Positions 1,149 through 43,497 of a stretch of DNA of 64,000 nucleotides are shown piece after piece; position 1 is the stretch's first letter, and each line of letters starts with the position of its first letter. Origin of the DNA: Octopus vulgaris (Eukaryota); contig OX597825.1 of the NCBI GenBank assembly GCA_951406725.2, positions 51,398,001 to 51,462,000 of the forward strand. The letters are read 5' to 3'. The translations under genes were made by a program, and so were the position numbers. The notes under the pieces are model-generated. The model had not been told where the DNA came from and searched no databases. It saw nothing but the letters and a program-made list of their open reading frames with translations.

Positions 1149-1185
1149 AGAAATTTGAAAAGAAAATACGAAACCGGTTATTTCT
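1149..1185 (+). ncRNA. Minimal type-I hammerhead ribozyme motif (U3-A8 core variant) in the PLE 3' region
   Basis: AGAAAU-UUGAAAA-G(AAAAUA)C-GAAA-CCGG-UU-AUUUCU: 6-bp stem I, 1-bp stem II, palindromic ACCGGU stem III; about 215 nt downstream of the PLE stop codon. Confidence 0.65.
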
Positions 1186-2289
1186 CCAAAAACTATGATA
1201 CTATACGCAAAATTTTATAACATTTTTCTAACATAACGACTTAAATATATTCTTAAACCATATACCACAAGCCTTCTGTACTTTTTTCAGTCCTTTTTAT
1301 TTTATATATATATATATATACATATATATAAATATATATACATATATATATATATATGTATATATATATACACGGATATATATTATTCATGCGCACACAG
1401 ACACACACACATAATTATAGGTGCATATATGTGCGAACAGGAAACTATACAGAAGCACAAACGCGCACGCAGATACACTCAAACCATTCCATTGCTGAAG
1501 CACACTTTCTGTGTTTCCCTTGAGGTTATCTCACGTTTAATCGTAAATAACGCATTAATAATTGTTTAATTTGTGAAAAGAATTTCACTCTGAGATAAAC
1601 GTTAAAATTCATTGAAGGAAGCACTTGAAACCTGGAAACTGAAGTGATTACGTGTGAACAATGACGAAAGCTACGAGGATATCTTGTTATTTAAATGACG
1701 ATGTACAAGATAGTTGCCTAATGCATTAATCTTTGGACGCGAGAACATAAATCTGATGGGCATATAAATTATAGCTTATTCAACAGGATAAAGGATTTGT
1801 TTGCAACAGAAGGCTTTTCAAAAAAACGCAAATTCTGCGGTTCAATATCGCAGAATTAGCTGTCAACATCTAAATGCTAATTAGTCTTCTCAATATATTA
1901 TTTATATAAGTCTGCGTGTATGTATATAACGCTGAAACCCAGGATATGCCTTTGCGTTATATATATATATATGATCATTATTATCAAAGCCACAGAAACC
2001 ACATTACTTCCAAAAGGTAATCGTTATCCTATTCGAGTTTACATTTAACTTTTTTTTTACGTTATATAAATCAGCTTTATTCAGAATAGCTAAAAATTAC
2101 ATAAAAATTCAATAGTTTTAATATACATGACAAAAATAAGTAACAAGTTATATCTGGATATCTAAGATGGTTTTAATACCATCTAATATATATATATATA
2201 TATATATATATATATATATATATATATATATATATATATATGTATACATATATACACACACATATGTACATACATATGTTTGTATATAG

Positions 2290-2960
2290 TAATGCATACA
2301 TGGGTACAGGATGTCACAAAACGTAAACAACATGGAATACGAAAATAACGTTGGATTTGAAAAGAACGAAATAAACAAATGGAAAACAAGTAACATAACA
2401 AACGAGTCTTCATCAGTTGTCAGTTGTTCTTTTACACTTTATTTCGCGTAATGAACATCAAGGTAAGATTTAGAAGGCATTTGCCCCCGCGAACCAAATT
2501 AAAATCTGAGATTTGCGAGGAGTCAAATTTGGTAACAAAAACAGGACTTACAACACACCAAACCAAACGATTACAAAACGGGAGGGTCGTTAGGCTCAGA
2601 CTAGTTAAGGTAACAAACGCTGGAAGAAGATTCTTTGATAAGAGAAAAGATAGGAGAGGAGACCCATAGGAATGTGTGCAGATTGCACAACAGACTGAAG
2701 GAAAAGAAAGATGATCACGTGAGGAAAGGAAACATGGACGATGGTCACGTGTGAGCAACGAGAGAGAGAGTAAAAGAGGAAGAAAGAGAGAGAGAGAGAG
2801 AGACATACAGACGGACATACCGATAGAAAATGCTGAAGGGGAGAAAAACAATTAGAGAAAGGATGAGAAAGAAAACGAAAGGGAGAGAGAGGGAACATTA
2901 AAGGAAAGAGTTGCATCAAATATATTAAGATAAAACTTACTTGGAAATGGATGCGTGGCA
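2290..2960 (-). mobile_element. Unclassified ~650-bp non-autonomous repeat ending at (TA)n-like sequence (family A), followed by a partial second copy at ~3055-3200
   Basis: Reverse-complement similarity to 3566-4165: head ACGCATCCATTTCCAAGTAAG, CT-rich body, tail TGACRTCCTGTACCCAT before TA-rich repeat. Confidence 0.75.
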
Positions 2961-3291
2961 TTTAATAAAATAATAATATAAATAATATATATATATATGC
3001 ATATATAGACACACATATGTACATAATATATATATGTATGCATATAGATATGCATAAATGGGTACAGGACGTCACAAAACGTAAACAACATGAAATGTGA
3101 AAATAACATTGCGTGCGCAAAAGCGAGAGAAACAAATGTAAAACAAGACAGGCCACATAAAAAACGACCCGTCTTCGAGCATTAGAGTATATCAAAGATA
3201 GTAGGTAATAGTAAGACAAGCGTGTACATATGTGTATATACATATATGTATATATATGTATATATATATATGTATATATATATATATATAT

Positions 3292-40309: not shown

Positions 40310-41565
40310 TTGGGTTGGCAACTAAGTTTCCACCGTTTTTTTTTTTTATTTTGGAAACTATTTTTTTCGAAAATTCTATTTTTGAATCACTTTGGAATCT
40401 ATTTTGTTTTGTTTTATTTTTTGGTCTAGTTAATTTTAGTTAATTTTTGTTCATTTTCAGATCATTAAAATGGAATGTCAACTTAAGAAAAACGAGCGTC
40501 TTCGACACCACTTCTTTTAGCTTTTAATCAAGGTTCTAAGACCGCAAAAGCTGCTCGCGACATTTGTGTTGTGTATGAAGAAGGTGCCGCAGCTGAAAGA
40601 ATCGCTCGTGATTGGTATGCCAAGTTCAAACATGGAAATTTTGACCTCAAAGCGCACCTCGTTCTGGCCGTGCAGTTGAGTTCGATGAAGAGAGATTAAA
40701 CCAACTTTTGCACGAAAATTTTCGTCAAACGACAAGTGGTGGCAGAGAAAATGGAATGCTATAGAGAAGTATCTTCATTCGATGGGAAAGGTTCAGAAGT
40801 ATGGAGCATGGGTTCCGCATGCTTTAAGTGACAACAAAAAAAATCAACGAGCCACAATCTCCGCTGGTTTGCTTGCTCGTCACTGCTCAACTCATGGACA
40901 CAAGCAGCGATTTCTTTACCAAATCGTTACTGGCGACGAAAAATGGTGCCTGCATATCAATATGAAGCAGCGTAAATAATGACTTAGTCCCGGTAAACAA
41001 GCGGCACCACGTGAAACAAGATCTTCATCCACGTAAAACGATGTTGTCCATATGGCATGGCTGGGAAGGAATTATCCATTACTAATTGCTTCAACAGAAC
41101 CAAACAGTCAACGCTTCCAACAGATAGGACGACTCAACACGGCTATTCAAGAGAAAAGACCTAATCGGCAGCATGGAGTTCTTGTGCTGCACGACAAAGC
41201 TCGCCCTCATGTCAGCAATATGGCCAAGGAAGCCATTCAAACGCATGGCTGGGAAGTGCTGCCACACCTGCCGGACTCTCCTGATTTGGCACCAACGGAT
41301 TTCCACCTCTTCCGATCTCTTTCAAATGCTATGCGCGGTGTTTCGTTCAATACTGATGCAGAATTGAGAGCTCGGTTGGATCAATTTTTCGAGTTGAAAA
41401 CTGCTGATTTCTACTAACGATGTAGTGAAAATCTTGTTGAACGTTGGGAAGAAGTTGTAAACATCAAGGGTGAATACATTATTGATTAATTAGTTGTTAT
41501 TTTTTATTAAACCTTTTAAAATTTTAGATTTAGAAAAAACCGTGGGAACTTAGATCCCAACCTAA
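40310..41565 (+). mobile_element. Full-length (1256 bp) inactivated mariner transposon, mellifera-like
   Basis: TIRs TTGGGTTGGCAACTAAGTTTCCACCG and CCGTGGGAACTTAGATCCCAACCTAA; TA TSD at 40308-09 and 41566-67. Confidence 0.95.
40470..41489 (+). pseudogene. Mariner transposase pseudogene (DD34D type)
   Basis: MECQLKKNE..., PRSGR, WVPHAL, IVTGDEKW, HDKARPH, SPDLAPTDFHLF, GEYIID*; several frameshifts and stops. Confidence 0.93.
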
Positions 41566-42679
41566 TAGAACCATGAGAAATTCACAGAGAACAAGTCACC
41601 TCCTCGATGGTCACTCGTGCATTTCTAAAAATTGTTGATAATTTTTAATTCCCATTGTAAATATTCTTCTTCTTTAGGTGCAATGCTCAGAATAAAGGAC
41701 AGGCGATTATATCCTGCCAAAATCCTCTGTTCTTTGTTCTGTAACAGCCTTAAATATTACATGTGTATATATATCATTCACTTACGTACGTATCTAATTA
41801 ATGTAAACAGCGACTAAAAAATTGAAAAAAATCATGCATTTCGTTCGACATTCTTTGTGATATTTGTTTTATACAGAGTTAAAGATATTTCCCTGTCACC
41901 ATCATTGTCAGAAAGGCAGCCGCGTATTGGGAATCAGTAACAAAAGAAGCTATTTTCCACAATTTGCAATACAACTAATTAAAACTATTGCTATTTGAAG
42001 TGTAGGGAAATATGACATTTAATACATCACCGATTTCTTTTGAAATGTCAGGAAGTGAAATGGTTTCAAACACAAAGAGGCACCAAGTTTTCGTCGAAAC
42101 GAAACCTAGTCGACGGATGTCAGATTCGCTTTAATCGAATAAAATAGATATTTGTTATTTTTGTTGGAACCTACAATAACGCATTTTGTATAGTTTCCTA
42201 ATTAACAACGCTACAAATATATATAAAACATCACTTCTGGGTGAATCTAAATTCCTCAGGACACTGCCACCTCGGTTCCTACAGCAATGGATTTTATATT
42301 AAAGAAATCTTAAATATTGATATGCAGTCACATAAATCAGCGGACTATATATTTGCGTGTGTCTGCGTTAACATTTCTAAACTTGTCAGGGTAAAATTTA
42401 TCATGGAACATTAGGAAGTTTATATAAATAGCACAACAGTAACTGACTCACTGTAGTACGCATTTAGTTTGGCACCAAAGTTTGAAATAAGCACTTGTGT
42501 ACAGCTCTTCAACCACACAAGTCAAATATATCATATATATATGAATGTGCATGTATATATAATGTATATAAAAATATACACATGCTTATATATGCATACA
42601 TATGTATATATATATATATATATATATATATATATATATATATATATATGTATGTATGTATGTATGTATGTATGTATGT

Positions 42680-43497
42680 CTATATTGTTGTATCTAGTAA
42701 TGGTCATTTTGCCAGTTTAGCCAATAAAAACACATGCACTATATATTTGGTGTTAATTTGCTTCAGCTTTATTTATTTTTTACATTAATCTTAATCTTAT
42801 TTCTACCAGAGTTCTTTCATCACACTCCTGTGACTGCATCAGTGGTCCTTTGCTTTCTTCTTTCTTATTTGTGTGTCTCTCCTTACTAACGGTCAGCCAT
42901 TTTTTATTTTGTATTCCTATTGTATGTGCCTTTATTTGCGCATGCGTATACCCCTATGTGTGTCTATGTTTAGTTAGTGTGTGGGAGAGTGCCTATAATA
43001 TTTGTATCTCCTGTTTATACACGTTCGTGTAATTAGTTTTTGCTTATTTTGTTCATGTGTTTACACCTACTCATTATTTTATTAATGTATATAGTTTACA
43101 TCCATTTATTTATCTGTATATTTTCTTTTTTTTAGTTTTGTTTATATTGTTATCAGTTTATGGGGATCTTATTCTGTCATATGTTGTGGTGTATTGGGGG
43201 TGTGTGATAGTGTTCCATTCCAGTTTCCTATTCAGGCTAGAATTATCTTCTATGATGTGTGTAGCTTCTGTAATTTGTCTAATTGTTGCATCCGTTCTAT
43301 GTGTGGACAAAATTTTAACTTCTATGTTGTTGAGTGAGCCCCGTTTTCCTGCTCGGCGTGCTGGTACGGAACCGATGAGCTCCTTTCTTCCTTAAGTTCT
43401 CTCCAATGTCCATTTACTCGCTCTCCTATGATCCGTGCCATTTCCCCTACGTACGTCGTTGTCTTCCGTCTCATTGCATGGCCTCTTGAGCAATGTC
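42680..43497 (-). mobile_element. PLE 3' fragment: GIY-YIG C-terminal half (43210-43495), 3' region with hammerhead, ending at microsatellite
   Basis: TYVGEMARIIGERVNGHW...SVPYQHA...IEVKILSTHRTDATIRQITEATHI...LNRKLEWN. Confidence 0.85.
42805..42846 (-). ncRNA. Type-I hammerhead motif with 8-nt core CUGAUGCA
   Basis: ACCA-CUGAUGCA-GUCACA(GGAG)UGUGAU-GAAA-GAAC-UC-UGGU; same strand as, and 3' of, the GIY-YIG relic. Confidence 0.7.

Follow-up and report, generated by a model that had tools for sequence, protein, structure and literature searches.

Hammerhead ribozyme motifs with family-level core changes in dispersed repeats of the Octopus vulgaris genome

Introduction

The subject of this work is a set of six hammerhead ribozyme motifs found in a stretch of 64,000 nucleotides of Octopus vulgaris DNA (assembly GCA_951406725.2, contig OX597825.1, positions 51,398,001 to 51,462,000), hereafter the window. 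The six motifs are hammerhead folds belonging to six separate, abundant and dispersed repeat families, all of whose carriers are likely to be of the known Penelope or retrozyme kind. In three of these families an altered core, A6U, U4C or A9C (standard numbering, as in PMC7151607), is the state of the family and not the decay of single copies. These three changes stand out as unusual, the remaining biology being mostly known. The original prediction, made from the letters of the window, had proposed one diverse system, in place of which six families with different carriers were found, and it did not single out the family-level cores, the unusual part.

The genome sampled comprises 2.8 Gb in 227 contigs, and the window, with about 34% GC, is rich in microsatellites. 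All six motifs are present with the strings, strands and cores that had been predicted:

1149..1185 (+), site 1 hammerhead: U3-A8 core UUGAAAA, 1-bp stem II, ACCGGU stem III
3391..3428 (-), site 2 hammerhead: A6U core CUGUUGA plus an extra A
23619..23653 (+), site 3 hammerhead: U4C core CCGACGA with an extra A, as in the larger subfamily
29877..29922 (-), site 4 hammerhead: canonical CUGAUGA plus an extra A, stem I of this copy damaged
37185..37229 (-), site 5 hammerhead: U3-A8 core, 4-bp stem II, ACCGGU stem III
42805..42846 (-), site 6 hammerhead: A9C core, the family majority being CUGAUGC plus an extra G

Core states of the six families

Family copies were counted as exact-pattern matches in the genome with the chosen core positions left free, control patterns giving 0 matches; since some patterns are stricter than others, each count is a minimum and the families can be compared only roughly. 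Letter frequencies are hand counts over the first 100 matches listed for each family, from the start of C1 (C1-C2 for site 5), with inverted pairs and arrays included.

The site 2 family yielded 15,782 exact matches, with U6 in 96 (A6 in 2, another letter in 2), U4 in 97 and a free N7 (U46, A23, C20, G11). For the site 3 family there were 9,355, with C4 in 74, U4 in 24, A4 in 2 and A6 in 99, and for that of site 6 there were 3,949, with C9 in 91, A9 in 7 and U9 in 2; among the 33 copies closest to the one in the window, however, 24 have A9. The textbook core C3U4G5A6N7G8A9, or its U3-A8 swap, is present in families 1, 4 and 5 and absent from most copies of families 2, 3 and 6. Moreover, the A6U and A9C cores occur on elements that bear open reading frames (ORFs).

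Among the other families, the site 4 core, which had been predicted as one of four non-canonical 8-nt cores, turned out to be canonical, with U4 in 97, A6 in 98 and A9 in 99 (5,078 exact matches). The site 5 family, with 729, has U3-A8 in 68, C3-G8 in 17, U3-G8 in 11 and other states in 4. The core of site 1 is the majority state of 31 aligned copies, and a DNA search with this site gave 1233 candidates. Such searches yielded 586-3392 candidates each for sites 1, 3, 4, 5 and 6, and no match with site 2, the method skipping very common words.

Site 2 as a decayed CUGACGA copy was rejected, that core having 33 matches (under a slightly different pattern) as opposed to the U6 majority. Decay at CpG alone is an unlikely source of the U4 copies of site 3, since the other CpG sites of the pattern decay in 4-9 of 100 compared with 24 for U4. 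In this family U4 also goes together with a diagnostic site further upstream in six of the eight copies that were counted.

Further core states were observed in passing. The U3-G8 group of the site 5 family could be a wobble step between C3-G8 and U3-A8, and the stem III palindromes of this family vary (ACCGGU, ACUGCAGU, ACCGCGGU). Loci L194, L199, L133, L179 and L004 hold further hammerhead families, including U3-A8 cores with CATG or CGCG palindromes, and relatives of sites 2 and 3 with CUGAAGAA, CCGAAGAA and CCGACGAA cores.

Conservation and variation within families

Copies of site 2 were collected by their 3' tails, giving 55 matches, 51 of them distinct. Identities were taken from 16 copies without selection on the core, after removal of one junk row, one truncated copy, two duplicates and two broken tails, and column counts from 15 copies of equal length. 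Between C3 and N17 the subfamily-level changes are confined to N7 and N17, that is, to 2 of 28 columns as compared with 24 of 87 in the 3' tail. In the diverged pairs (50 of 120, with tails less than 80% alike), identity reaches 90% in the motif and 76% in the tail. The positions that vary in the A6U subfamilies are ones that a hammerhead leaves free, and N17 stays U, A or C throughout the alignment. The 29 A6 copies placed in a tree of the tails, without support values, are scattered among the U6 copies, a pattern that fits separate point changes. Furthermore, in contigs of four runs from four organisms, coverage peaks on the site 2 motif and the differences listed there fall at N17, loop 2 and N7 only. 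These contigs displayed neither joints nor ends of molecules, features that contigs are unable to reveal. A hidden coding frame as the reason for the free N7 (third codon position, one frame per strand) was rejected: N17 = A creates a sense-frame stop in 10 of the 15 copies, and indels in the tail break the frame.

In the site 5 family the 3-8 pair is Watson-Crick in 85 of the 100 matches, U-G in 11 and other in 4 (Fisher 3e-9, with 7 of the 17 C-G cases coming from one array), and one stem II pair is G-C in 89, A-U in 8 and mismatched in 3. At the sequence level this family thus shows covariation both of C3-G8 with U3-A8 and within stem II.

Penelope-like carriers of sites 1, 2 and 6

The original prediction had placed minimal hammerheads of the type found in Penelope-like elements (PLEs) beside microsatellites, and the carriers of sites 1, 2 and 6 bear this out, being PLE ends at TA-rich or other microsatellites. 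In the following lines, RT stands for reverse transcriptase:

13..1302 (+), 3' portion of a PLE, with a broken RT-linker-GIY-YIG remnant as far as 934 and the terminal repeat after it, up to (TA)n
3291..3434 (-), 3' terminal repeat, cut short at its 5' end, of an ORF-bearing PLE, with microsatellites on either side
42631..43465 (-), PLE lacking its 5' part, with the last stretch of the GIY-YIG region (43199-43465) and the 3' terminal repeat, up to a TA-rich microsatellite
43575-44781, start approximate (-), broken RT remnant with RWK-like and DKT motifs, marks of Hydra-clade PLEs

The three sites lie in the 3' terminal repeats of endonuclease-bearing PLEs, which are assigned to the Neptune/Nematis type by their features rather than by an RT phylogeny. 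The site 1 element, 88.7% identical to a relative over 1305 nt, contains the linker CGRPNCATC and a YIG motif, and its hammerhead lies 215 nt past the broken linker-GIY-YIG frame; RT or endonuclease (EN) motifs precede the hammerhead in 15 of 30 loci of the family, the window copy included.

For site 2, a near-complete element at locus L221 agrees at its 3' end with the window repeat (98.6% over 144 nt); this element has a 453-aa RT stretch (Pfam RVT_1 E 3.4e-8), a DKG motif, a CSRPRCRTC linker and an endonuclease region. Its coding region, interrupted by one stop and one frameshift, is followed by the identical CUGUUGAA motif, and at a second parent locus, made up of L008 plus L222, the CUGUUGAA motif again follows the endonuclease region. 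The site 6 element is 86% identical over 872 nt to L133 and 83-86% to the ORF-bearing L223. The latter has a 623-aa open RT-linker-EN stretch, a C9 core and inverted arms that are 99.4% alike; its RVT_1 match (E 0.001) falls under the Pfam cut-off.

All three PLEs carry CX2-5CxxC linker and YIG motifs. Compared by blastp with a PLE protein bearing the Pfam GIY-YIG domain, they match with E 5e-23 (site 1), 4e-4 (site 2; linker 2e-6) and 5e-8 (site 6); direct Pfam GIY-YIG scans of the three elements were negative, and a Pfam scan of 13 window ORFs found no relevant family. Inverted arms are present at L223 and L224, and TA-rich repeats at 3' ends.

Neither blastn nor blastp matched the RWK/DKT remnant next to site 6 with the parent of that site. 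Membership of the Hydra clade was rejected for the site 6 element on this ground. The view that the site 6 motif had decayed from the A9 core of a Hydra element, suggested at first by the nearest matches and the adjacent remnant, was likewise rejected, given also the C9 majority of the family and the C9 core of the ORF-bearing parent.

Just upstream of this Hydra-like remnant lies a 188-nt inverted repeat (89%; 44897-45528, with 256 nt between the arms). At L020, L053 and L054, the TA tails of site 1 family elements contain copies of the site 2 and site 3 families, 380-470 nt downstream; distinct PLE families share this target and could be co-transcribed.

Other carriers: sites 3, 4 and 5

The carriers of the remaining three sites are likely to be mobilised by PLEs. 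Those of site 4 resemble short interspersed nuclear elements (SINEs):

23548..23754, ends approximate (+), short element of about 210 nt, kin of the terminal repeat at site 2 (72-77% against copies of that family)
29790..30251 (-), composite SINE-like element: hammerhead body 29790-29972, (AAT)n, tRNA-like head 30107-30185
30188-30251 (+), inverted head copy in the site 4 composite
36972..37541 (-), rearranged retrozyme copy with a monomer of about 358 bp and inverted pieces, ending at (TA)n

For site 3, no ORF-bearing parent was found among 42 copies compared, and these share no upstream sequence, apart from three copies that lie on a single contig and the window's own duplicate. Many short copies of the site 2 and site 3 families begin at one preferred 5' junction, a CATG-like site, though the parent extends upstream.

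Matches to the site 4 body have the head upstream in sense in 21 of 43 cases, an inverted head in 14 and neither in 17, and a middle segment of up to about 530 nt separates head and hammerhead unit in 4 of 30 loci. No ORF-bearing parent was found among 30 loci with 1.5-kb flanks. We take the head to be tRNA-like from A- and B-box patterns; ARAGORN detected no tRNA in it. A larger composite can be traced at 29790-30950, with a tRNA-like head, (AAT)n, the middle of about 530 nt, (AAT)n, the hammerhead unit and an inverted 5' copy, and it may be a SINE moved by PLE machinery.

Site 5 is assigned to a retrozyme because its carrier is homologous to a 359-bp tandem array at L181 (69% over 151 nt) and copies of the family are spaced 356-359 bp apart; the expected inclusion of a retrozyme-like short element is thereby supported. 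The array itself (L181:2280-4540; C1 near 20.002-20.005 Mb) has five tandem units of 353-359 bp in one orientation and two in the opposite one; their cores are the canonical CUGACGA, and the array is a candidate source of circular RNA.

Elsewhere, 12 copies of an abundant SINE-like repeat family are distributed over window positions 9451-54812; the family resembles a known octopus SINE. ORF pieces at 39537-41417 resemble, in their motifs, a mariner-type transposase; a Pfam scan of 41037-41414 gave no match.

Fold, detection and density of the motifs

The type I minimal fold (stems I and II round the core boxes, A15.1-U16.1 and H17) was recovered by descriptor in five of the six window copies and, for site 4, at the level of the family. 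Stem III is palindromic at sites 1-5 (ACCGGU, ACGU), and that of site 6, AGAACU, is an imperfect palindrome with two central A-A mismatches in the dimer. The site 4 copy is damaged in stem I, although its family pairs 5 bp there, and at site 6 the basal pair of stem II in the window copy is a G-U.

A strict CUGANGA descriptor gave 0 matches in the 64-kb window, in agreement with the expectation that strict searches would miss most of these motifs. The relaxed core suggested with the original prediction, requiring a stem I of at least 3 bp, recovered four of the six sites, against a mean of 1.27 in 100 local shuffles (5 of which reached 4); at 4 bp or more it recovered three, with a shuffle mean of 0.49 and none of the 100 reaching 3. 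A post-hoc descriptor, written with the sites already known, recovered five of the six (mean 0.1, maximum 1 in 50 shuffles), and in 400 kb of unselected, evenly picked genome it gave 19 matches at 13 loci, compared with 0.7 in 10 shuffles. Site 4 escapes both descriptors because stem I of its window copy is damaged. In Rfam, only site 5 matched a hammerhead model among the 150 of 197 matches listed (HH9, 29.1 bits, E 0.0035), below the gathering threshold of 52.

About 2.1 hammerhead loci are expected per 64 kb, with a probability of 0.06 for five or more and 0.02 for six or more. The window is at most mildly enriched in hammerhead loci, and the case for a special local cluster is weak, the density being near that of the unselected sample.

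Interpretation

The explanation that we favour, and hold to be probable, is that the motifs cut rarely, as dimers or with the aid of protein, and that weak cores are tolerated because the uncut RNA is the template. The elements would be transcribed as tandem or read-through RNA, in which the palindromic stem III would let two motifs pair, and the protein encoded by the element would likely aid the folding; occasional cleavage at N17 would trim or circularise the RNA, and the uncut RNA would serve for reverse transcription. A lineage could then fix a core change that lowers cleavage and yet spread, with the rest of the fold staying under selection. The A6U, U4C and A9C cores are accordingly predicted to leave slow-cutting ribozymes. 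This reading has in its favour the ORF-bearing parents of sites 1, 2 and 6, the family-level cores, the pattern of conservation among the site 2 copies and the covariation in the site 5 family. In PMC11167929, catalytic mutations still allow insertion in vitro, the substrate is mainly uncut RNA, and a lizard PLE ribozyme needs the element protein; in PMC9901934, CUGA mutants are only weakly active.

Several points weigh against this explanation. Cleavage, RNA ends and circles are predictions for every family, and sequence conservation cannot separate slow cleavage from none. The Fisher p of 0.035 for the site 2 columns is generous, because the 15 copies are related and the tail queries were drawn from motif-bearing copies. 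The silence of the contig table at U6 is weak support, because at N7 the table gives just one of the three alternative letters to be expected there. An A9C change would permit a C9-G12 Watson-Crick pair at the general base, which could lock G12 and kill the ribozyme. Finally, sites 3, 4 and 5 have yielded no ORF-bearing parent (42 copies for site 3, 30 loci for site 4).

Such a locked G12 would equally suit the view that the A6U, U4C and A9C motifs no longer cut and are kept for another task of the terminal repeat, such as protein binding, RT start or promoter DNA, which we consider possible but unlikely. It agrees with the independence of insertion from cleavage in vitro and with the lizard data, where no RNA reads ended at the cut site (PMC11167929), as well as with the spread of Naiad PLEs that have no canonical hammerheads (PMC8557442) and the poor activity of CUGA mutants (PMC9901934). 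Against it, the variation sits at N7, N17 and loop 2, positions that are free in catalysis, with N17 staying U, A or C, and the natural U4C core of a viroid (PMC3088659) and the A6C core (PMC7151607) keep a low but real activity.

A stronger version of the favoured explanation, in which three PLE lineages independently fixed A6U, U4C and A9C and then outmultiplied their textbook-core sisters, is doubtful. The hammerhead would here be a tuned-down brake on transposition, and CUGUNGA a working core kept across subfamilies and related species and invisible to searches that demand A6. Selection for weak cores is at odds with the size of the canonical site 4 family (5,078 matches), with the abundance of the U3-A8 family of site 1 and with the canonical U4 subfamily, which makes up about a quarter of site 3.

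It is improbable that another metal ion, a protein cofactor or the geometry of the dimer makes the altered cores fully active in the cell, A6U then behaving like the Mn2+-preferring A6C. The A6C core does cleave far better in Mn2+ than in Mg2+ (PMC7151607), a PLE hammerhead is protein-assisted (PMC11167929) and U6 is kept across diverged subfamilies; however, pairwise CUGA mutants were not rescued save for the 3-8 swap in one hammerhead (PMC9901934), and three different positions are altered in three families with no common compensating change seen. Chance folds, individually decayed copies or a special local cluster are very hard to credit: the relaxed descriptor does give 1.27 chance matches and sites 4 and 6 bear copy-specific damage, but for five of the six motifs the exact matches number between 729 and 15,782, with 0 for the controls, site 1 has its 1233 candidates, the odd letters are majority states and the density is close to that of the unselected sample.

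Significance

The families supply natural pairs that match except for a single letter of the core (A6/U6, U4/C4, A9/C9), together with the C3-G8/U3-G8/U3-A8 series, and two of the matched-pair families have ORF-bearing parents; cleavage rate can therefore be set against the success of the copies. The three altered families thus offer a natural test of whether such elements need RNA cutting. In addition, descriptors demanding CUGANGA or UUGANAA would overlook some 25,000 out of 29,000 exact matches counted for these three families, as extrapolated from the first 100 listed in each, and ribozyme censuses of such genomes may therefore be large undercounts.

Comparison with known systems

The PLE hammerheads described by Cervera and de la Pena in 2014 (PMC4209133) are minimal motifs with low dimer activity and the consensus CUGANGAH. 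Like those found here, they are of type I, with an extra nucleotide between 9 and 10.1, G10.1-C11.1 and a palindromic helix III, include a U3-A8 variant and occur as many families per genome, mostly as single copies from truncated PLEs. The two core chemistries of the original prediction are both present in the window, but neither the 8-nt core nor U3-A8 is a new chemistry, because both had been published for PLEs in that paper. The strings CUGUUGA, CUGUCGA, CCGACGA and 'Octopus' gave 0 matches in one of its supplement files, and part 2 of 3 of the supplement rows holds no A6U, U4C or A9C core.

Sites 1, 2 and 6 share with the Neptune/Nematis-type PLEs (Craig et al. 2021, PMC8557442) the RT, the CX2-5CxxC linker, which is present in both clades, and the C-terminal GIY-YIG, as well as the hammerhead terminal repeat, inverted truncated copies and microsatellite targets; the clade features and the microsatellite targeting of PLEs are set out in that paper. 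It terms the hammerheads of such clades canonical, whereas two ORF-bearing lineages here have A6U or A9C. Both that paper and PMC4209133 describe the role of PLE hammerheads as an open question.

Site 5 shares with the non-LTR retrozymes (Cervera and de la Pena 2020, PMC7229834; bioRxiv 10.64898/2026.07.22.740005) non-coding tandem units of about 358 bp and a type I hammerhead, and the mussel retrozyme repeats, of 350-390 bp, are close to its unit. It differs in that most of the copies listed are U3-A8, with a U3-G8 group besides. In turn, the schistosome SINE-like elements (review PMC6765202) combine a promoter and a hammerhead, like site 4 with its pol III-promoter-like head; the latter differs in its internal (AAT)n spacers, optional middle of about 530 nt and PLE-style inverted 5' copies, its promoter being putative.

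No A6U or A9C hammerhead core was found in the literature searched, the single paper listed for A6U being about a twister; Lunse et al. 2017, cited in PMC6765202 for PLE-associated variants, and Arkhipova et al. 2017 could already contain such cores. Likewise, no paper on these motifs was found for octopus or cephalopods: a squid genome paper only gives a count of 235 Rfam hammerheads, and in PMC10886601 the search terms occur only in the references. Natural core variants such as U3-A8, the U4C of a viroid and the A6C of a phage are weakly to fully active and have been described as rare (Perreault et al. 2011, PMC3088659; PMC7151607), whereas here variant cores are the majority in families of thousands of copies.

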